Assembly (NCBI RefSeq): GCF_003086415.1
Contig: NZ_QEFP02000016.1
Span: forward strand, 160-32,159
Direction of reading: 5' to 3'
Origin: Candidatus Nanobsidianus stetteri
GTDB lineage: Archaea > Nanobdellota > Nanobdellia > Nanobdellales > Nanobdellaceae
Length of the DNA: 32,000 nucleotides
The notes beneath the pieces are model-generated. The model was not told the DNA's origin and ran no database searches. It saw only the letters and a list, made by a program, of their open reading frames with translations. The first letter of the stretch is position 1, and the number at the start of each line of letters is the position of its first letter. Positions 3,482-31,908 of this stretch are shown in pieces. The position numbers were made by a program, and so were the translations under genes.

Positions 3482-4090
3482 ATGATTAAAAAATATAGAT
3501 ATATTGCAATTGAGGGAATTGACGGTTCTGGAAAAACAACAATTGCAAATTTGTTATATAATGAATTATCTAAAAGATATGATAAGATAATATTAGTGAA
3601 AGAACCATATGATAATGATTTATCCAAAAAAATAAAAGAAATAATTTTAAAAGAACATGAAAAAAATTTAGATTATGGATATTTATTAGCATTATTATTT
3701 ACTGCTGATAGAAGTATAAAAAACATTGATTTAAAGAAATATTTAAATGATGATTATATTGTTATTTCTGATAGAAGTATTTATTCCACATTTTCTTATC
3801 AAATTTTATATGAAGGAATAGATATTGAATGGTTAAAATGTGTATCAAAATATATAATTAGACCAGATATTACTTTTATATTAGATGTTGATCCAAAAAT
3901 TGCGGTAGAAAGAGTAAATTCAAGGGGTAAAAATATTACAAGTTATGAAAATATTGAATTTTTGAGAAAAGTAAGGGAAAATTTCTTAAAATTAAAGGAA
4001 ATATTTCCAGAAGATAATATAATTTATATTGATGGAGAAGAAAAACCTGAAGAAATATTGAAAAAAATATTAAGTATAATAGAAAAATAA
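3482..4090 (+). CDS. tmk: Thymidylate kinase
   Basis: The P-loop IAIEGIDGSGKTT sits at the N-terminus, followed by a DR(S/Y) motif (ADRSIKN / SDRSIYS). Length is about 200 aa. Confidence 0.85.
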   Translation: MIKKYRYIAIEGIDGSGKTTIANLLYNELSKRYDKIILVKEPYDNDLSKKIKEIILKEHEKNLDYGYLLALLFTADRSIKNIDLKKYLNDDYIVISDRSIYSTFSYQILYEGIDIEWLKCVSKYIIRPDITFILDVDPKIAVERVNSRGKNITSYENIEFLRKVRENFLKLKEIFPEDNIIYIDGEEKPEEILKKILSIIEK

Positions 4091-5328: not shown

Positions 5329-5955
5329 ATGATGAAACTAGTCATTACCCTGTCGGTGAGGAGTCTAAAAGATATAAAATTAGTTTCTGCTCTAGATTCT
5401 GATCTAGTAGAGCTCAGACTGGACTACCTGAGGAGACCAGAAGACTTCGACCCATCCTTAATCGATGATATAAAGGATAGAGTTATTGTAACTGTAAGAG
5501 ATCCCAGTGAAGGGGGAATCAAGGAGGTGGATGAAGATTGGAAGGCTTCACTTTACAAGAAACTTCATGACATGGGGGTGCTTTACGATGTAGAAGCCAG
5601 GTTCTTGAGGAAGAGAAAAGATATCCCATTCGAAGGGAAAATAGTATCTGCTCATTTCTTCGACAGAGTTCCTAGTATAAAGGAAGTGGAGGAAATCTTC
5701 AAGAGTTTCGAGGAGGCCTGGATAAAGAAACTGGCAGTGACCGCAAGAGAAGGTTACAAAGAACTTCTAGCTCACTTCGCCAGAAAAGGTTTCGCTATCA
5801 TGCCCATGGGATCGGACCCAATTGAAAGGATAGCCTTCGCTATACTAGGATCAGAACTTATTTATGCAAGCCTCGATAAGGGTTTAGAAACAGCCCCAGG
5901 GCAAATGAGTTACAAAAAGGTTAAAGAAATCTTGTCCTGTCTAGGACTACGCTAA
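5329..5955 (+). CDS. aroD: Type I 3-dehydroquinate dehydratase
   Basis: The 208-aa product shows AroD-type landmarks: LVELRLDYL, VTVRDPSEGG, IVSAHFF, KLAVTA, MPMGS...RIAF and APGQMS. Sampled lines are 37-50% GC, about twice the surrounding genome. Confidence 0.75.
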   Translation: MMKLVITLSVRSLKDIKLVSALDSDLVELRLDYLRRPEDFDPSLIDDIKDRVIVTVRDPSEGGIKEVDEDWKASLYKKLHDMGVLYDVEARFLRKRKDIPFEGKIVSAHFFDRVPSIKEVEEIFKSFEEAWIKKLAVTAREGYKELLAHFARKGFAIMPMGSDPIERIAFAILGSELIYASLDKGLETAPGQMSYKKVKEILSCLGLR

Positions 5956-7349: not shown

Positions 7350-7453
7350 ATTTAAAATTTATAAATTTCAAAGTAGTATATATAAGGCACATAAGATTCA
7401 AATTTTGAAAAAGGTCTAATTATATACTACTTTGAAATTTATAAATTTTAAAT
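7350..7453. repeat. Perfect 33-bp inverted repeat (arms 7350-7382 and 7421-7453) around a 38-bp spacer
   Basis: The left arm atttaaaatttataaatttcaaagtagtatata is the exact reverse complement of the right arm tatatactactttgaaatttataaattttaaat. Each arm contains the 14-bp palindrome aaatttataaattt. The spacer contains a small dyad, ttcaaa-t-tttgaa. Confidence 0.9.
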
Positions 7454-7776: not shown

Positions 7777-9042
7777 TTACCTATTTAATAACCATTTCCA
7801 TAAAGGTATTAATTTTATTTCTTTATTATCTTCAATTATTTTATCTTCTAAATCCCATGTAATAATTTTTAGATTATTACAATTTAATAAATTGGATGCT
7901 TTAATTAATGATCTTATTTCTCTTCTATCTATTTCATCTAAATTATTTATATAAGAAACCTGAATTAATTCTTTTATTATATCATTTTCTTTTATTAGAA
8001 AATCTACTTCATGTTGTTGGTAATCTTTAAAATAATATATTTCAATTAAAGGATCATTATTAACTAATCTTAACAAATCTAAATAAACTATATTTTCCAT
8101 CCTTTTTCCTATATCATATTTACCAAACAAATTTGCAAAAGAGACATCGCATAGATAAACTTTTCTTGGCCATCTTTTTCTTTCAAAAAATTTGTCAGAA
8201 TATTTTTCTATAAAAAATATAGACATTGTATCCTGTATTTTATCCATGTATGAAAATATGGTATTTTTTGTATTTATATTAAGCTGATTTTCTATGAATC
8301 TTTTTATTCTATTTATGCTTATTTCATTAGAAAAGTTCTGCATTAAATATTCAAAAATAATTCTTGCAACATTAAGACTTTTGATTTTCCCCCTTTCTAT
8401 GAAATCTTTATAAAAAATTGTTTCATAATATTCTTTAATTATTCTTTCTTTATCTTCTATGAAAATTACTTCCGGATATCCTCCAAATTTTATATATTCT
8501 CTTAAATATTCTTTTATCTTTTCTATATCACTTATACTCAATATTTTAGAAACTTTTATCCTTGTTTTTAAAAATTCCCTGAAAGAAAATGGTAATAAAA
8601 TATAGTATATTGTTCTACCCCTTAATTCGGTTAATAATTCTTTTGGTAATAATCTTGAAGAAGAACCTGTTAAATATATATTGTACCCTCTATCAATTAA
8701 TGTTCTTACCAATTTATTCCAATTTTCTAAATTTTGTATTTCATCTAAAAATATTGTATTTATTTTTACATTATATTTGGATTCGTATAAAGATATTATA
8801 TTTAAAATTTCTTCTGGCTTAATATTTGAGAATTCTATGCTTTCAAAATTAATATATATTGAATTATCCTTATTTGATAAATATTTATTTAATAATAAAT
8901 ATGTTTTTCCAGATCTCCTAGGACCAACAATAGATATAGCTTTATTTTCTATATTTTTTATATTTAATTCTCTTTCAATATAATTTATTTTTCTTTCTCT
9001 TATTCTTTCGAAATATTCTACTATAAGACTTTCATTATACAT
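7777..9042 (-). CDS. AAA+ ATPase of the COG1373 type (ATPase domain plus DUF4143-like C-terminal region), paralog 1
   Basis: Walker A is VGPRRSGKTYLL and Walker B is TIFLDEIQ, with a C-terminal HEVDFLI motif typical of the restriction-endonuclease-like tail in this family. I place the start at Met-21 of the track ORF (ATG at 9042). The first 20 track codons are encoded by the 49-bp repeat that contains the TATA box. Confidence 0.8.
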   Translation of the reverse strand: MYNESLIVEYFERIRERKINYIERELNIKNIENKAISIVGPRRSGKTYLLLNKYLSNKDNSIYINFESIEFSNIKPEEILNIISLYESKYNVKINTIFLDEIQNLENWNKLVRTLIDRGYNIYLTGSSSRLLPKELLTELRGRTIYYILLPFSFREFLKTRIKVSKILSISDIEKIKEYLREYIKFGGYPEVIFIEDKERIIKEYYETIFYKDFIERGKIKSLNVARIIFEYLMQNFSNEISINRIKRFIENQLNINTKNTIFSYMDKIQDTMSIFFIEKYSDKFFERKRWPRKVYLCDVSFANLFGKYDIGKRMENIVYLDLLRLVNNDPLIEIYYFKDYQQHEVDFLIKENDIIKELIQVSYINNLDEIDRREIRSLIKASNLLNCNNLKIITWDLEDKIIEDNKEIKLIPLWKWLLNR

Positions 9043-9049
9043 GTCATTA

Positions 9050-9098
9050 TTATTATACCAAATTTTTATAAAAATGGTATAGTTACTATACCAAATAT
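9050..9098 (-). promoter_or_regulatory. 49-bp direct repeat, copy B; the promoter/operator region of AAA+ ATPase paralog 1
   Basis: The palindromic TATA element atttttataaaaat (9062-9075) is centred about 25 nt upstream of the ATG at 9042, which implies a leaderless mRNA. It is flanked by TATACCA (9054-9060), TGGTATA (9075-9081) and TATACCA (9087-9093). Confidence 0.6.
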
Positions 9099-9165
9099 TC
9101 AAGATTTTGTTTCATATATAAAACAATATCTACAGATTTTGTTTCATGAATTATACAAAATTCAA

Positions 9166-26144: not shown

Positions 26145-27668
26145 TTATAATATTAAGAATAATTCCTTTGGCATATATAATATATTATCTCTAAATTCTA
26201 ATTCATAATCTCCAATAATAATTCCGTATTCAGCATTATATCTTTTCATACTATTTCTTACTTGTTTCTCTGCATTTTTATCTTTTCCATATTTAACCTC
26301 TATAGGTATTATTTTATTTTCAAAGGTCTTTATTAAAAAATCTGCACTATTTTTATTAGGATCATAAAAAACATTTATGTTTGACATATTATGAGTTATT
26401 TGTATTTTATATAATGTTGAAGCTATGTATTCTTCAAATAAGAATCCTATATCACTTTCTTTAAATGTTCCTAAATAATCTTTTATCATAAATCTTATTG
26501 TTGGTGTTATAAAATAACGTTTCCAAGTTTTTCTGCTTATTTTTTCTTCACTTCCCAATGGTTTAATAGAAAATATTAAAGAAGACATTTCTAAATATTC
26601 TAAAATATTCTGTACATTTTCTTTACTTATGTTCAAACTATTTGAAATATTTTCTATGCTTGTTTTTTCTGAGCCTGCCAAATAATTTATAATTTTTATA
26701 GTATCTTTTATACTAGAAGATTTAATGTTATTTATTGTGGGGATATCTAAATAAGCAATTTTTTTAATTGTCTCCAATAACAAATCTTCAGAATCTTTTT
26801 TATATAATGCTGTAAATGGAAAACCTCCGAATTTTAGGAAATCTTCAATTTCAAAAGAATGTAATTTTATTTTTTTATATATCTCTATAATTTCGTTATT
26901 AGTAAAAAATTCGCTAGTAAATTTAGGAATAAGCGAATCATCTTTCAATAAGTTTAGTATTTTTTCCTTAAGTATTTTAGTTTTATAATATTTATCAATC
27001 TTTTTTGATATTTTTAAATATTCAATAAAGTTTAAAGGAAATAAATACTCTTTTTTGGCTCTTCTAGCTAAATCTGCAGTAGTTTCTTTTTCTAATTCTA
27101 ATGCAGAGGAACCTGTAGCAATTATAAATATACTTGGATACCCATCATAAATAACCTTTAATGTTAAAGCCCAATTTGGATCATGATTTACCTCATCTAA
27201 TAATAAAAATACTGGTTCTTCAGAAATTGCTAAATCTTCAAATAAGATTTTAGATTCATAAACTTCTATACTAGATCTTAAATCGTAATTAAGACTTTTT
27301 AAGTCATCTACAGATATAAACAATACCCTTTCTCTAGGTATATTCTTTTCTTTAATTAGGTATAAATATGTTTGATACAATAATGTTGTTTTGCCAGTCC
27401 CTCTTAATCCAGGTATGATAATTAATCTATCAATCTTAGTATTTTTTTCAAGAAAATTATTTATATGGTTTTTTATTCTGGAAAAGATGTGTCTTTTTGG
27501 AAGTGGTTTATTATTCTCATCTGTAGTATATCTTAAGGCTAACTTTTCTGTATATTGTATTCTTCTTTCTAGGTAGGTTTTTAGTATGTCAATATCCATG
27601 ATATTATAATAACATTTAATATTATAAGTTTTATCATTTGTCGTAATTCTTAGTATTAATACATCCAT
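26145..27668 (-). CDS. AAA+ ATPase of the COG1373 type, paralog 2
   Basis: Walker A is PGLRGTGKTTLL and Walker B is FLLLDEVN, with C-terminal SADFLI...PIEVKYG restriction-endonuclease-like motifs. An alternative start at Met-24 (ATG at 27599; MDIDILKTYLERR) aligns better with paralog 1. Confidence 0.8.
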   Translation of the reverse strand: MDVLILRITTNDKTYNIKCYYNIMDIDILKTYLERRIQYTEKLALRYTTDENNKPLPKRHIFSRIKNHINNFLEKNTKIDRLIIIPGLRGTGKTTLLYQTYLYLIKEKNIPRERVLFISVDDLKSLNYDLRSSIEVYESKILFEDLAISEEPVFLLLDEVNHDPNWALTLKVIYDGYPSIFIIATGSSALELEKETTADLARRAKKEYLFPLNFIEYLKISKKIDKYYKTKILKEKILNLLKDDSLIPKFTSEFFTNNEIIEIYKKIKLHSFEIEDFLKFGGFPFTALYKKDSEDLLLETIKKIAYLDIPTINNIKSSSIKDTIKIINYLAGSEKTSIENISNSLNISKENVQNILEYLEMSSLIFSIKPLGSEEKISRKTWKRYFITPTIRFMIKDYLGTFKESDIGFLFEEYIASTLYKIQITHNMSNINVFYDPNKNSADFLIKTFENKIIPIEVKYGKDKNAEKQVRNSMKRYNAEYGIIIGDYELEFRDNILYMPKELFLIL

Positions 27669-27718
27669 AATAATATATTAGTTTTTAGTATTTATATATT
27701 TTATTTTTTCATAATAGT

Positions 27719-27734
27719 TGGTATATTAATACCA
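27719..27734. promoter_or_regulatory. Palindrome TGGTAT-ATTA-ATACCA upstream of AAA+ ATPase paralog 2
   Basis: tggtatattaatacca is a 6+4+6 dyad. It uses the same half-site (TGGTAT/ATACCA) as the dyads inside the 49-bp repeats at paralog 1. Confidence 0.45.
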
Positions 27735-27803
27735 TGTTTGTATCCTAAAAATTAGGATGAAAAATATAAATTATTATTGTACCAAATTGTGCGATAAAGA
27801 AAT

Positions 27804-30374
27804 TTATATTATCTTATTTAAGTTCTTTAGACTCCTTTTATCTAAATCCTTCAATATTATTTGATACAAATTATCATTTTCATCAATAAAAAGAATCTTA
27901 TCTTCAAAAATAAAAAGATTTTCTGGAGATGTTATTTTTATTTCTAATTCTTTATTATTTATAATAGTATTTAATATTATTGTTTCGCCTTCAACATCTA
28001 TTTTTCTTATTTTTTCTATTTTATATATTATAGAATTATATCTAATTGCATTTTCTAATATTTTTCTAGAATTTTCATCCAAAATTGTATAATCTTCTAA
28101 TAAAAATATTTCATTGAAATTATCATCATAAAATCCTACAAATTTTGGATTTGATATTGGGAATAATAATTTTGGCATAAGATTCTCATATTTTTTACCA
28201 TTATATACAACATTTACTCTACTAGGTCTATTAGTTGGTTCTATTATTACATTTTTATCTTTTATTATATTTAAATTAATTATTTCCGATTCTTTATTAA
28301 CTTTTTCAATTTTTTCTAAATTTTCTATTTGATTTTTAAATAATTCATAGAACTTTCCCTTTTTATTTATTAATTCCTCTAGTTTTCCTTCTTCTACAAT
28401 TTTTCCATCTTCTATAACAATAATTCTATCCATATTTAACATTTCTGATAAATTATGTGAAATATATATTAAAGTTTTATCTTTTGATATATTTAATATA
28501 GCGGAAAAAATATTTTCTCTACTTTTAGCATCAATATTTGATGTTAATTCATCAAATATAAATATATCAGGATTTCTTATTATATTTCTTGCAATTGCTA
28601 TTTTTTGTTTTTGTCCGCCAGATAATTTTGTTCCTTCTTCTCCTGCTGGAGTATCATATGCAAAAGGTAATTTAATTATATCATCATGTATATTTACAAT
28701 TTTGCAAACTTTAATTATTTCTATTTCATTTACATTTGGATTTCCATAAGATATATTATATCTAATAGTATTATCAAAGATTTCTGGATTTTGAGATAAA
28801 TAAGAAATCCTTTCTCTAAGATATTTTGAATCTATATCCTTTATATTTGTATTTCCAATCAGTATTTCTCCATCATTTACGTCATAAAATCTTAATAATA
28901 ATTTTGCAATTGTTGTTTTTCCAGCTCCGTTTTTTCCGACAATTGCAACTTTTTCTTTTGGTTTTATTGTAAAAGAAATATTTTTTAATACAGGGAAACC
29001 TGGTTCATATTCAAAAGTAACATTAACAAATTTTATTTCATCAACAATATTTGGTTTTAAAGCATTCTCTTTATTTAATATTTTTGGTTTTTCTTCTAAT
29101 AATTCTAGTATTCTTTCAGCAGAAATCAAAGTGCTTGGCAAGTCTCTAAAAAACCTTTCATATGTTGTATAGAGTGGGCTATAAATATATGAAGTATAAG
29201 ATATAAAAGCAACCAATATACCTAACTTAATTAGATTATTAATTACAAAAGTTCCACCAAAATACCATATAAATACGGTAGTTAAATCCATTATAAAAGA
29301 TATCAAGTCTGCTCTTATTATGAAAAATTTTACTAATTTGGTATCTATGAAATACCAATCGTTTATTGTGTTTTTTGTTTTTTCATATTCTTCTCTTTCC
29401 TTTGAGAATAACTTAATACTATAAAAATTCCTAAGAATATTAACTAACTTCGTAAAGATATCTACTGACTTTATTGTTGCTTTTTTGCCAACTGTTCTTG
29501 CTTTTCTTTCATAAATTATAAAAAGAGCAAATGCAACTATTGTTGTAATTATAACAGGTATTGCTAAAAAGGGCAATAATAGAAAGAGTATAATAATTGT
29601 TCCAATAATCATTAAAGTATCTATAATTATAGAGGGCAGATCATATGCAATAAAATAATTTATTCTTCCTATATCGGATTGATATCTAGATATTAATCTA
29701 GAAGGAGAATATTTTTCTACAAAAGAAATATCATTGAAAATTATATGTTCTAATAATAATTCTCTTAGTTCTTTTATAATTTTTATCTGTGTAATGTTCA
29801 TTAAAAAATCTCCTATTAGATATAAAAATCTATAGCTAATATAAGACATTAGCATTAAGAAAATTATTGTAAGAAATACTTGCTGCGATGGGGTTTTTGA
29901 TATAAGAACTTTATTTATTAGTAAAGCTGTTAAATAAGGAGGAATTAGACTTATTATAGTACCTATAATAAAGATAATAATAACTAAAGTAAGTTCTTTC
30001 TTATATTTTTTAATAATTTGCATTAAAAATCCATATATTTCTTTTTTAGATCTTTTCCTTTCTTCTTCTTTTTCAATTATTTCTGTTTTTACTTTTAAAT
30101 TAAATTCATCTACAATTTTCCGTATATTATCTGCTTTTTTCTTTGTAAAATATGCAACTTCAAAAACTTTTCCATCTTTATCTATTGCAATTAATTTACA
30201 TATACTAATTCCATATTCTATATTTAGTTTTTCTACATTATCAATTTCTAATATTTTGTTTTTATTATCATCATATACAGAAATTTTATCATCTAAAATT
30301 TCAATAGTTTCTTCAGTAAAATTAAGATTTCTATCAAGATCCGTTTTAAATATTGCTTTAAAATGATCTGTCAT
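27804..30374 (-). CDS. ABC exporter half-transporter (TMD plus NBD) with an extra N-terminal soluble domain and a C-terminal DUF1854-like domain
   Basis: A six-TM ABC exporter-type region is followed by Walker A GKNGAGKTT, signature LSGGQKQKIAIAR and Walker B IFIFDELTS. An N-terminal domain of about 115 aa precedes the TMD. The C-terminal roughly 165 aa (LLFPISNPKFVGFYDDNFNEIFLLEDYTILDENSRKIL...LFIDENDNLYQI..DLDKRSLKNL) match my recollection of DUF1854. Confidence 0.75.
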   Translation of the reverse strand: MTDHFKAIFKTDLDRNLNFTEETIEILDDKISVYDDNKNKILEIDNVEKLNIEYGISICKLIAIDKDGKVFEVAYFTKKKADNIRKIVDEFNLKVKTEIIEKEEERKRSKKEIYGFLMQIIKKYKKELTLVIIIFIIGTIISLIPPYLTALLINKVLISKTPSQQVFLTIIFLMLMSYISYRFLYLIGDFLMNITQIKIIKELRELLLEHIIFNDISFVEKYSPSRLISRYQSDIGRINYFIAYDLPSIIIDTLMIIGTIIILFLLLPFLAIPVIITTIVAFALFIIYERKARTVGKKATIKSVDIFTKLVNILRNFYSIKLFSKEREEYEKTKNTINDWYFIDTKLVKFFIIRADLISFIMDLTTVFIWYFGGTFVINNLIKLGILVAFISYTSYIYSPLYTTYERFFRDLPSTLISAERILELLEEKPKILNKENALKPNIVDEIKFVNVTFEYEPGFPVLKNISFTIKPKEKVAIVGKNGAGKTTIAKLLLRFYDVNDGEILIGNTNIKDIDSKYLRERISYLSQNPEIFDNTIRYNISYGNPNVNEIEIIKVCKIVNIHDDIIKLPFAYDTPAGEEGTKLSGGQKQKIAIARNIIRNPDIFIFDELTSNIDAKSRENIFSAILNISKDKTLIYISHNLSEMLNMDRIIVIEDGKIVEEGKLEELINKKGKFYELFKNQIENLEKIEKVNKESEIINLNIIKDKNVIIEPTNRPSRVNVVYNGKKYENLMPKLLFPISNPKFVGFYDDNFNEIFLLEDYTILDENSRKILENAIRYNSIIYKIEKIRKIDVEGETIILNTIINNKELEIKITSPENLFIFEDKILFIDENDNLYQIILKDLDKRSLKNLNKII

Positions 30375-30485: not shown

Positions 30486-30644
30486 ATGTTTAAAGGATGG
30501 AAAACGTTAAGAGAAGAAATTAAAAGAAAAGAAAAAGAGAAAAGATTGAAAGCAATAAGAAGGTTAGGAGAATTATTGGAGAAGACAGGTGCTACTCCTG
30601 AAGAAACTATAAAAATAATAAGGGAAATTAGGGAAGAAAATTAA
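30486..30644 (+). CDS. Possible small basic helical protein (52 aa)
   Basis: Translation is MFKGWKTLREEIKRKEKEKRLKAIRRLGELLEKTGATPEETIKIIREIREEN, below the track cutoff. Only the ORF and its position in an otherwise empty gap support it. Confidence 0.3.
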   Translation: MFKGWKTLREEIKRKEKEKRLKAIRRLGELLEKTGATPEETIKIIREIREEN

Positions 30645-30718: not shown

Positions 30719-30802
30719 CGCCGCGGGTGGGATTTGAACCCACGCCCCCTTTCGGGGATATGGTCTCCAGCCATACCCCTTGGTCCGCTCGGGCACCGCG
30801 GC
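30719..30802 (-). tRNA. tRNA-Ser (anticodon GGA), class II with a long variable arm; no encoded CCA
   Basis: The minus strand reads GCCGCGG-TG-CCC..GGG-G-TATGG-CTGGAGA-CCATA-TCCCCGAAAGGGGGC-GTGGG-TTCAAAT-CCCAC-CCGCGGC-G. All four stems are Watson-Crick, the anticodon loop is CT-GGA-GA, the variable stem is CCCC/GGGG and the T-loop is TTCAAAT. Confidence 0.93.
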
Positions 30803-30804
30803 AT

Positions 30805-30870
30805 AAATGTCCCCCGCCCATCGTTACCAATACTCATCTTTTCATATTGGTTCGTCTAAGCGGGGATACA
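30805..30870 (-). ncRNA. Single-hairpin archaeal H/ACA box guide sRNA (predicted de novo)
   Basis: Minus-strand elements, 5' to 3':
- Lower stem UCCCCGC (30866-30860) pairs with GCGGGGG (30817-30811).
- The internal pocket is UUAGACGA (30859-30852) opposite AACGAUGG (30825-30818).
- Upper stem ACCAAUA (30851-30845) pairs with UAUUGGU (30832-30826).
- The apical loop UGAAAAGAUGAG forms a K-loop with U.G plus tandem sheared G.A/A.G pairs.
- ACA lies at 30810-30808, 15 nt from the base of the upper stem.
The element is a GC-rich island in AT-rich DNA. Confidence 0.75.
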
Positions 30871-30902
30871 TATTTAATATAATTTAATATAAAAATATTT
30901 TT

Positions 30903-31835
30903 ATGTTAACAAGAAATTTATTAGAAAAGGTAAGTCAAAAAATAAATCAAATAAAAAAAGATGAAGAAAATAATAAAGAAGAAAAAATTAATATTGGAAA
31001 ATTAAATTTTGATAATTTTGAAGTAAAAGAAAAGAAAAAATATGGATTTATAGATTCTTCTCATGTAAATGGAATTGTTGGACCTTATAGTTATATATAT
31101 TCTAGGGCAGTGATTGTTTCTGACGATATATATGAAATTATAGAAGATATAGAATTTTTTGAAACATCTTTTATAAGATCAATTAATAATGAAAATTTTG
31201 ATATTCAAGATATTTCAGAACTACTATCAAAAAATTTAGAATATAAATTGGCAAGAAAATATTCTGATAGATATATATTTATAGATGGATCAATAATATC
31301 AGATTCTATATTATATTCAAAATTTTTAGATAATTTTTATAATGAAAATATTGAAAATAGGAGAAAAGAATTTTTAGAAAATTTTGAGTATTTAATAAAT
31401 AATGGAAATTTATTGGCAGTTGCAAAAAGAATATTAAATTTAGATATAATAAAGCCAGGTAGATCTGATTTATTAACATTGATGAAAGTTTTTCCATCAG
31501 AAATATTTTATACAGATATTAATGAAAAACAATTAAAGGAATTTTTAAGTTCAAAAATTCCAAACTGTTCTTTTTGTAACAAAAAAATATATATAATATA
31601 TTTTAGGGCAAGATATAATGATCATATATATAGATTAGAAGGAATGGAAAAAGTTGAAAAAGAAAAGTTTAAAGAAATAATAAAAGAGGTTATTTATGAT
31701 CAAAAATCATATCCAAGAGGATTAAAAATGGCTCATAATTTATGTAAAATAACAAATAAAGAAAAATTATTGTTAGAAAGTTATATTAAAAAAATTTTAG
31801 GATTTGAAAAAACTGTTGGTTGGGAAACTCATTAG
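30903..31835 (+). CDS. nurA: NurA-family 5'-3' nuclease
   Basis: The first Asp motif is YGFIDSSH, the second is YIFIDGSIISD, and the C-terminal SYPRGLKMAHNLCKIT matches the gYP..L..AH..a.i block of NurA. Length is 310 aa. Confidence 0.7.
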   Translation: MLTRNLLEKVSQKINQIKKDEENNKEEKINIGKLNFDNFEVKEKKKYGFIDSSHVNGIVGPYSYIYSRAVIVSDDIYEIIEDIEFFETSFIRSINNENFDIQDISELLSKNLEYKLARKYSDRYIFIDGSIISDSILYSKFLDNFYNENIENRRKEFLENFEYLINNGNLLAVAKRILNLDIIKPGRSDLLTLMKVFPSEIFYTDINEKQLKEFLSSKIPNCSFCNKKIYIIYFRARYNDHIYRLEGMEKVEKEKFKEIIKEVIYDQKSYPRGLKMAHNLCKITNKEKLLLESYIKKILGFEKTVGWETH

Positions 31836-31908
31836 GGTCCGGGGCGGGATTCGAACCCGCGATCTTCAGGTCCACAGCCTGACGCCTTACCACTAGGCTA
31901 CCCGGACC
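31836..31908 (-). tRNA. tRNA-His (anticodon GUG) with genomically encoded G-1; no encoded CCA
   Basis: The minus strand reads G(-1)-GTCCGGG-TA-GCCT-AGTGGTA-AGGC-G-TCAGG-CTGTGGA-CCTGA-AGATC-GCGGG-TTCGAAT-CCCGC-CCCGGAC-C. All stems are perfect. The extra 5' G lies opposite the discriminator C. The 3' end abuts the nurA stop codon (31833-31835). Confidence 0.93.

Follow-up and report, generated by a model that had tools for sequence, protein, structure and literature searches.

A hairpin with the architecture of archaeal H/ACA guide RNAs

The only box H/ACA small RNA (sRNA) described in Nanoarchaeota is that of Nanoarchaeum equitans, an expressed RNA of 159 nucleotides (nt) with two hairpins that is encoded between NEQ389 and NEQ392 (Randau 2012, PMC3491384). 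N. equitans encodes the COG0130 synthase, and terrestrial Nanoarchaeota share RNA-modification genes with N. equitans (PMC3655853). Single-hairpin H/ACA sRNAs are known from other archaea, among them Pab91, Pab21 and Pf9 of Pyrococcus and Afu46 of Archaeoglobus. Here we describe an H/ACA-like element of 59 bases on a 32,000-nt stretch of DNA from contig NZ_QEFP02000016.1 (the whole of this stretch is referred to as the window), where it lies at 30866..30808 on the minus strand, beside a gene for a serine transfer RNA (tRNA-Ser). From its sequence, the element very probably represents a hitherto unannotated gene that encodes a box H/ACA guide sRNA of ~60-65 nt with one hairpin and belongs to a thermophilic nanoarchaeon of the Nanopusillaceae/Nanobdella group. 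The window also encodes TBP, a proteasome subunit, FttA/aCPSF1, Orc1/Cdc6, the PolD small subunit, a topoisomerase, the ribosomal proteins S8, S14 and L18, and the nuclease NurA, and it is therefore archaeal by its gene content (TBP, FttA, Cdc6, PolD).

Read 5′ to 3′ on the minus strand, the element runs UCCCCGCUU AGACGA ACCAAUAU GA AAAGAU GA GUAUUGGU AACGAU GGGCGGGGG ACA. An initial annotation, made from the letters alone, had proposed an H/ACA pseudouridylation guide across 30803-30870, a span that proved slightly too wide. The two stems that it drew are where it placed them, namely a lower stem of UCCCCGC (30866-30860) with GCGGGGG (30817-30811) and an upper stem of ACCAAUA (30851-30845) with UAUUGGU (30832-30826), as are the apical loop UGA-AAAGAU-GAG with its tandem G.A and A.G pairs and the ACA triplet (30810-30808), which follows the 3′ strand of the lower stem at a distance of 15 nt from the upper stem. 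The 8x8 internal loop of that annotation is present as drawn, but the working pocket is better described as ~6x6, because the outer UU and GG of the larger loop form two U.G pairs (U-A in Nanobdella) that extend the lower stem to 9 base pairs (bp). A closing U.G pair likewise brings the upper stem to 8 bp, and the result is the canonical '10/6/9' fold. The complete lower stem thus comprises UCCCCGCUU (30858..30866) and its partner GGGCGGGGG (30811..30819), and the complete upper stem comprises ACCAAUAU (30844..30851) and GUAUUGGU (30826..30833), the 3′ strand of each being defined by both fold and covariation. Between the stems lie the two pocket strands, AGACGA (30852..30857; the 5′ guide) and AACGAU (30820..30825; the 3′ guide). 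At the apex, the sheared G.A and A.G pairs formed by GA at 30843-30842 and GA at 30835-30834 close the 6-nt loop AAAGAU to give a kink-loop (K-loop; 30834..30843), the presumed binding site of L7Ae, and the ACA box (30808..30810) is the presumptive anchor for Cbf5.

Several properties of the sequence set this element apart from its surroundings. Its GC content is 49%, as against 15-30% for most of the window and ~23% for the genome, in agreement with the GC-rich patch noted initially. Its minimum free energy (MFE) is -26.9 kcal/mol, compared with -12.8 +/- 2.7 kcal/mol for 200 dinucleotide shuffles (z = -5.18), none of which (0/200) folded as well. Four positions hold U.G pairs that would turn into C.A mismatches if the element were read on the plus strand, and the fold therefore belongs to a minus-strand transcript. 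The earlier statement that no open reading frame (ORF) explains the patch also held, the sole overlapping ORF being a spurious frame of 51 aa (30727-30882, plus strand) that runs antisense through the tRNA.

The element conforms to the published rules for archaeal H/ACA RNAs. Under the descriptor of Muller et al. 2008 (PMC2377435), the lower helix has a minimum of 7 bp and the upper helix one of 5 bp, each strand of the loop measures 5-11 nt and the lower helix is flanked by an ACA; the element has a lower stem of 7-9 bp, a pocket of 6x6 to 8x8 and an upper stem of 8 bp, and the same holds for the eight orthologs described below. In functional Pyrococcus motifs, a 'GA stem' of 10 layers extends from the pocket to the second G.A pair, and the closing pair is separated from the ACA by 14-15 nt (Toffano-Nioche et al. 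2015, PMC4652768). At the level of sequence, eight layers of upper stem plus G.A plus A.G give 10 layers in all eight orthologs (the eighth layer being A.A or U.U in Nanobdella and in the lineage designated L004), and an ACA stands directly 3′ of the lower stem at 14-16 nt from the pocket-closing pair. Both the ACA distance and the 10-layer GA stem match the geometry published as "productive" for archaeal H/ACA RNAs. Hence every computable structural feature of an archaeal H/ACA RNA is present and conserved in eight lineages, which supports the guide RNA reading of the initial annotation.

Comparison with individual RNAs places the element within this class and apart from its described members. 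Like Pab91, Pab21, Pf9 and Afu46, it consists of a single hairpin with the '10/6/9' fold of PMC4652768, in which a lower stem of ~9 bp is followed by a pocket whose 3′ strand has 5-6 nt, a helix of 10 layers leads to the tandem G.A of a kink-turn (K-turn) or K-loop, and the ACA stands 14-15 nt away from the upper stem. It differs from them in that the guides are unrelated and there is no sequence homology, its stems are AT-richer, and its gene lies head-to-tail with a tRNA gene; AGACGA and its complement are absent from the supplementary files of PMC4652768, and the element has no guide strings in common with known Pyrococcus or Pyrobaculum guides. The N. equitans H/ACA sRNA belongs to the same phylum and RNA class and has its own promoter and a T-stretch terminator (PMC3491384), but it consists of two hairpins with internal K-turns as opposed to one with a K-loop, its guides differ, and it lies between genes for tyrosyl-tRNA synthetase and a hypothetical protein and not beside NurA. 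Judged by sequence, guides and synteny, the element is not a homolog of that RNA. When the whole window was searched against Rfam, only tRNAs were found at gathering thresholds or at E <= 1, and no family covered the element, so that the check with covariance models suggested in the initial annotation gave no match at threshold. The best non-tRNA alignment, in a local search, was to hairpin 3 of HgcG/Pab40 (RF00064), with 21.1 bits against a gathering score of 77. Here the lower stem CCCGC/GCGGG, the GAUGA beside the upper stem and the ACA are aligned, whereas Pab40 has three hairpins and the element one, and the pocket sequences differ; the likeness is a resemblance, and the element is not a member of RF00064.

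Conservation and covariation at NurA loci of eight lineages

We compared the window with the NurA loci of seven further lineages (n = 8), which include Nanoarchaeota archaeon YN1, Nanobdella aerobiophila, a Nanopusillaceae metagenome-assembled genome (MAG; L005) and sequences from JGI, ENA (L045) and Logan contigs. NurA itself (30903..31835, plus strand; Pfam NurA E = 1.2e-11) lies outside the RNA, is divergent from it and served as the syntenic anchor. Its relatives include metagenome sequences at 89-97% identity, YN1 at 64%, N. aerobiophila at 56% and the Nanopusillaceae MAG at 51%, and across the compared lineages its identity to the NurA of the window falls from 69% to 37%. In all eight lineages the same hairpin is found 34-54 nt upstream of NurA and directed away from it; in the window, the NurA start (30903) is 36 nt from the hairpin, on the opposite strand.

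Both stems have changed in these lineages in a compensated manner, as the initial annotation had anticipated for syntenic loci. Specifically, in the lower stem a C-G pair is replaced by U-A in YN1 and by G-C in L046, and in Nanobdella, where the stem is CCCUGUCUU/AAGACAGGG, CCCCGC has become CCCUGUC with the 3′ strand changed to match. The upper stem ACCAAUAU/GUAUUGGU has been replaced entirely, with compensation, by GCCUUUAU/AUAAAGGU in L044 and by GCCGGUGU/ACACCGGU in L045, and one of its A-U pairs is G-C in L004. In a model-guided alignment, 95.7% of stem cells form standard pairs, a figure that drops to 37-53% on sliding the 3′ partners by 1-3 columns; five pairs (11 cells) have changed on both sides, and no shuffle (0/500) reached the observed covariation score. 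RNAalifold, applied to an independent MAFFT alignment, returned the identical two stems and an open pocket. A covariance model built from five of the sequences recovered the three held-out orthologs (E = 5e-16 to 7e-12); across 136 kb of nanoarchaeal sequence, of which the remainder of the window formed part, it found one copy per locus and no other credible match. It is because eight lineages keep this shape through compensating mutations that we consider an H/ACA guide RNA very probable.

The unpaired parts of the hairpin are conserved in a different way. The apical motif GA...AUGA is invariant in all eight sequences, with a loop of 5-6 nt, and the ACA is likewise present in all eight, at 15 nt from the upper stem in six of them, 14 in L045 and 16 in L004. 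(The distance of 16 nt in L004 (3907-3966, minus strand) is due to an additional C, which forms a bulge in the 3′ strand of its lower stem, GCCGGGGG, and may be either genuine variation or a fault of the assembly.) The 5′ guide forms an internal loop in every ortholog and occurs as AGACGA, GGACGA, GACGA, CGAAGA or GGUAGA, such that G15, G18 and A19 are invariant and positions 14, 16 and 17 vary. The 3′ guide, AACGAUGG, is identical in five lineages and otherwise reads GACGAUGG (L044), ACGAUGG (L045) or AUCGA (Nanobdella), with C-G-A invariant throughout. The MFE fold draws C17-G49 and G18-C48 across the pocket, but in L005 and L046 an A replaces C17 and nothing compensates for it; these cross-pocket pairs are not maintained, and the loop is therefore kept open. 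An open pocket with a near-invariant 3′ strand is the pattern that would be expected of a guide.

Candidate targets and competing explanations

The modified uridine would most probably lie in 23S ribosomal RNA (rRNA), if the H/ACA function that we infer from structure is correct. Target scans used a 12-position guide score and covered, as stable RNAs, the Escherichia coli rRNAs, 16S rRNAs of relatives, the 23S rRNA of N. equitans and one further nanoarchaeal 23S rRNA, termed L109. The E. coli rRNAs contained no target above 8.5/12. Five nanoarchaeal 16S genes (Nanopusillus acidilobi, Nanobsidianus stetteri Nst1 and three Nanopusillus MAGs), retrieved with the published fluorescence in situ hybridization (FISH) probe 515mcR2, contained no convincing site, the best scoring 7.5-8/12. 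The N. equitans 23S was transcribed from the alignment in the supplement of PMC4644070. L109 is a complete 23S gene in an AT-rich nanoarchaeal contig (GCA_054017035.1; flanks of 29% GC) that was reached by way of spurious antisense ORFs: a number of public 'proteins' of 180-330 aa (P0023-P0054) are antisense translations of archaeal 23S genes, as at L109 4001-4870 (plus strand), and these are annotation artefacts that are useful for fetching rRNA loci. The other 23S genes found in this way, one from a methanogen and one from a genome of ~35% GC, were irrelevant, a second protein search with ORFs over the candidate 23S site returned nothing, and IMG/VR proved to be essentially without rRNA. A scan of the window itself was uninformative, with chance matches of up to 10.5/12 in AT-rich coding sequence.

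One site stood out, and it was found with the guide of L046. On the L109 23S, this guide forms 13 contiguous pairs (5 + 8) around one uridine and leaves U-A unpaired between the helices, the entire 5′ strand UUGGUAGA pairing with UCUACCGG and ACGAU of the 3′ strand pairing with GUUGU; shuffled guides reach 13 pairs in 0.7% of trials (P ~0.007). The uridine aligns with U2613 of E. coli, at the start of the 3′ strand of helix 73 and beside the peptidyl-transferase loop, and the U-A is conserved in E. coli, in seven aligned archaeal 23S rRNAs and in L109. The invariant guide bases A19, G18, G15, U13, U12, C48, G49 and A50 face conserved rRNA positions, the variable guide bases 17, 16 and 14 face positions 2617, 2618 and 2620, which vary among archaea, and the one-base deletion beside the upper stem in L045 leaves the register of pairing at this site unchanged. 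On this evidence we put forward the 23S uridine equivalent to E. coli U2613 as a tentative candidate target, one that is rather less likely to be right than wrong. We know of no organism in which pseudouridine has been described at the equivalent of U2613. The fuller proposal, that the family guides this pseudouridine, that guide positions 14, 16, 17 and 47 co-evolve with 2620, 2618, 2617 and 2612, and that RNase P matures the guide from a tRNA-Ser precursor, is slightly more doubtful still when taken as a whole.

The initial annotation had derived a 'maximal' target from all 8+8 pocket positions, which is too long because the outer UU and GG of the pocket are part of the lower stem. Other candidate sites were tried and set aside. 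The 3′ guide resembles a conserved 23S motif, CUGUCGUU, at the H75/H76 junction, but all 35 metagenome matches to GCAGCCTGTCGTTTNTCKWC were protein-coding and random-looking, and the motif was further ruled out by its next base, which is G in every archaeal 23S examined. U2610 is matched by the Nanobdella guide at 10/12 (P = 0.012) and was dropped, as six of the eight guides place A opposite the invariant G2608. At the GTPase-centre sequence CCAUC.U.UAA, each half of the guide resembles the site when taken singly, yet the two never fit together, and a C would occupy the central position. Archaeal H/ACA targets need not be rRNA: sR115 of the Sulfolobales is directed at U35 of tRNA-Tyr, and sR435 of Saccharolobus (S.) islandicus at U38 of tRNA-Pro and at CRISPR RNAs (crRNAs). 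Since archaeal guides with tRNA targets are known, the tRNAs of this genome are also candidates. The pocket misfits the anticodon-loop context of U35 in tRNA-Tyr, as judged by inspection of the conserved C-U-G-U35 and not by computation, and U54/U55 of the tRNA T-loop was ruled out by inspection of its conserved flanks.

A number of observations weigh against the reading of the element as a guide or against the U2613 candidate. No convincing bipartite target was found in the rRNAs scanned. The guide of the window scores at best 7.5/12 in the 16S of Nanopusillus and Nst1, finds no site in the N. equitans 23S (best 7.0/12) and reaches 8.5/12 on the L109 23S, with P = 0.17. At the U2613 site of L109 it forms just 5 + 2 contiguous pairs, and for a 5′ guide of the window type to pair there, the 23S of its own genome would have to differ at three positions, carrying G-U at 2617-2618 together with U at 2620. 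The P value of the candidate site becomes ~0.03-0.04 once the six guides tested are allowed for. To these may be added that the Rfam score is far below threshold (21 bits vs 77), that the covariation comes from eight related sequences only, and that genes for Cbf5, Nop10, Gar1 and L7Ae are absent from the window, the rest of the genome not having been searched.

The scarcity of convincing sites in the rRNAs scanned (related 16S, N. equitans 23S and L109 23S) would suit a conserved K-loop RNA that binds L7Ae, and perhaps Cbf5, and no longer guides, acting instead as an 'orphan' rRNA-folding chaperone, scaffold or regulator. Such RNAs have a precedent in sR666 of S. islandicus, a Cbf5-associated K-turn hairpin with no guide region, and the 5′ guide of the element does differ at two or three positions among lineages. 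However, the pocket stays open and its 3′ strand is near-invariant, the conserved ACA distance and 10-layer GA stem have no other purpose than to position the uridine of a substrate in Cbf5, and the rRNAs scanned came from outside the host lineages; we therefore regard a role of this kind as unlikely.

The remaining explanations turn on the setting of the hairpin and on its apical motif. The start of a tRNA-Ser 1-5 nt downstream in four lineages would be in keeping with a role for the hairpin in the tRNA-Ser precursor, as a structured 5′ leader or a processing element, and it might otherwise serve as a terminator or attenuator for neighbouring genes. Yet Nanobdella, L044, L045 and L046 conserve the hairpin just as well with no tRNA after it, no gene ends upstream on the strand of the hairpin, NurA is directed away from it, and a terminator would not require a conserved internal loop, G.A pairs or ACA, so that either function appears very improbable. 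A degenerate C/D box methylation guide, or some other K-turn RNA, is brought to mind by the apical UGA...AUGA, which resembles a C′/D′ K-loop (the initial annotation had likened it to a D′/C′ pair), and by the abundance of C/D sRNAs in Nanoarchaeota (PMC3491384), one of which adjoins NurA in L045. But the element lacks a terminal C box (RUGAUGA) or D box (CUGA) and its ends instead form a perfect GC stem before the ACA; none of the C/D families of Rfam aligns to it, and a C/D pattern scan of the window found nothing at this position, which leaves this the least credible of the explanations considered. A single-hairpin H/ACA guide RNA remains the reading that we prefer.

Gene organisation, proposed maturation and neighbouring features

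In the window, the ACA is followed by the 5-nt spacer UUUAU (30803..30807) and then directly by tRNA-Ser(GGA) (30719..30802, minus strand; identified with ARAGORN and scoring 54.6 bits with the Rfam tRNA model). A tRNA-Ser also follows the ACA in YN1, L004 and L005, after 1, 4 and 3 nt, respectively. In the window, YN1 and L004 this tRNA has the anticodon GGA; that of L005 (~3805-3887, minus strand), at the same syntenic position as in the window, has GCU. No tRNA follows the hairpin in Nanobdella, L044, L045 or L046, where a T-rich tract comes after the ACA instead. That the hairpin is kept in four lineages without the tRNA indicates that it is independent of the tRNA; where the two adjoin, a shared hairpin/tRNA-Ser precursor is likely, to judge from their arrangement. 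In N. equitans, the promoters of sRNAs and tRNAs have a box A that precedes the start site by 26 nt (PMC3491384). At ~25-30 nt upstream of the hairpin, we read from the sequence a TATA-like AT-rich box, UUUUUAUAUU (30886..30895, minus strand), as a possible promoter; the region is so AT-rich that the evidence is weak.

A guide RNA next to a tRNA on one strand has a counterpart in the tRNA-Val/C/D sRNA8 dicistron of N. equitans, in which the arrangement likewise implies maturation by tRNA enzymes (PMC3491384). There the C/D sRNA lies downstream of the tRNA, on the side cut by RNase Z, whereas here the H/ACA RNA lies upstream, on the side cut by RNase P, an enzyme that is present in terrestrial Nanoarchaeota and not in N. 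equitans (PMC3655853). A dicistron of guide RNA and tRNA, the layout suggested here with an H/ACA RNA, is so far reported only for C/D RNAs in N. equitans. We infer every step of the following scheme, for which the sequence features themselves are what was observed. Transcription would start from an AT-rich promoter of the element's own and proceed away from NurA and, in the genome of the window, would continue through the downstream tRNA-Ser(GGA). Cleavage by RNase P at the 5′ end of the tRNA would then leave the sRNA with a 3′ end consisting of the ACA and a few nucleotides, and L7Ae would bind the apical K-loop. The pocket strands (5′ AGACGA and 3′ AACGAU) would pair with the flanks of one uridine in a stable RNA, and this uridine, ~15 nt from the ACA, would be placed in the active site of Cbf5 and converted to pseudouridine.

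Several other features were seen in the vicinity of the element. Between ribosomal L18 and the tRNA-Ser, the window contains an AAA_14/DUF4143 ATPase together with an 856-aa ABC transporter with a C-terminal DUF1854 (26145-30374, minus strand); this pair is absent from that position in YN1, L004 and L005, in which L18 is directly adjacent, and looks like a lineage-specific insertion. Between the transporter and the tRNA-Ser there is also an ORF of 52 aa, rich in Lys and Glu (30486-30644, plus strand) and without a Pfam match, which may be a real small protein or noise. On the far side of NurA, the opposite strand carries tRNA-His(GUG) (31836-31907, minus strand), which starts right at the stop codon of NurA with no spacer. 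In the ENA lineage, a textbook C/D box sRNA (L045 3914-3963, minus strand) lies just downstream of NurA and reads AUGAUGA-CGUGGUCCUCAC-AUGA-AAA-AUGAAGA-GGUUGCGCCGCUG-CUGA; neither of its guides matches the Nanopusillus 16S.

Elsewhere in the window, an ORF for a type I 3-dehydroquinate dehydratase (AroD; 5329-5955, plus strand) sits in a block of ~700 nt with 40-49% GC, as against ~23% for the genome; the block gives the impression of a recent horizontal transfer, for which the host archaeon is a possible source. Another AAA_14/DUF4143 ATPase is encoded at 7777-9102. A perfect inverted repeat of 33 nt (7350-7382 and 7421-7453, with a 38-nt spacer) lies, along with further direct and inverted repeats, within a gene-free stretch of 530 nt with ~15% GC, which could be a replication origin, the end of a mobile element or a regulatory region.

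Taken as the sequence comparison suggests, the element is a newly found conserved gene of a known RNA class, set apart by its fusion to tRNA-Ser in some lineages and its strict linkage to NurA, and it leaves the general picture of H/ACA biology unchanged. The linkage to NurA and the partial fusion to tRNA-Ser would make it a simple case for the maturation of a guide by tRNA-processing enzymes. As no Rfam model catches the element, the alignment of eight sequences could seed a new Rfam family. Should the proposed target prove true, 23S U2613 would be a new modified position by the peptidyl-transferase centre and would offer a clean example of guide-target co-evolution. The RNA would be the second H/ACA guide for Nanoarchaeota, non-homologous to that of N. 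equitans and found in terrestrial, cultivable lineages (Nanobdella, Nanopusillus and YN1), and its retention would mean that extremely reduced symbionts still pay for RNA-guided pseudouridylation.

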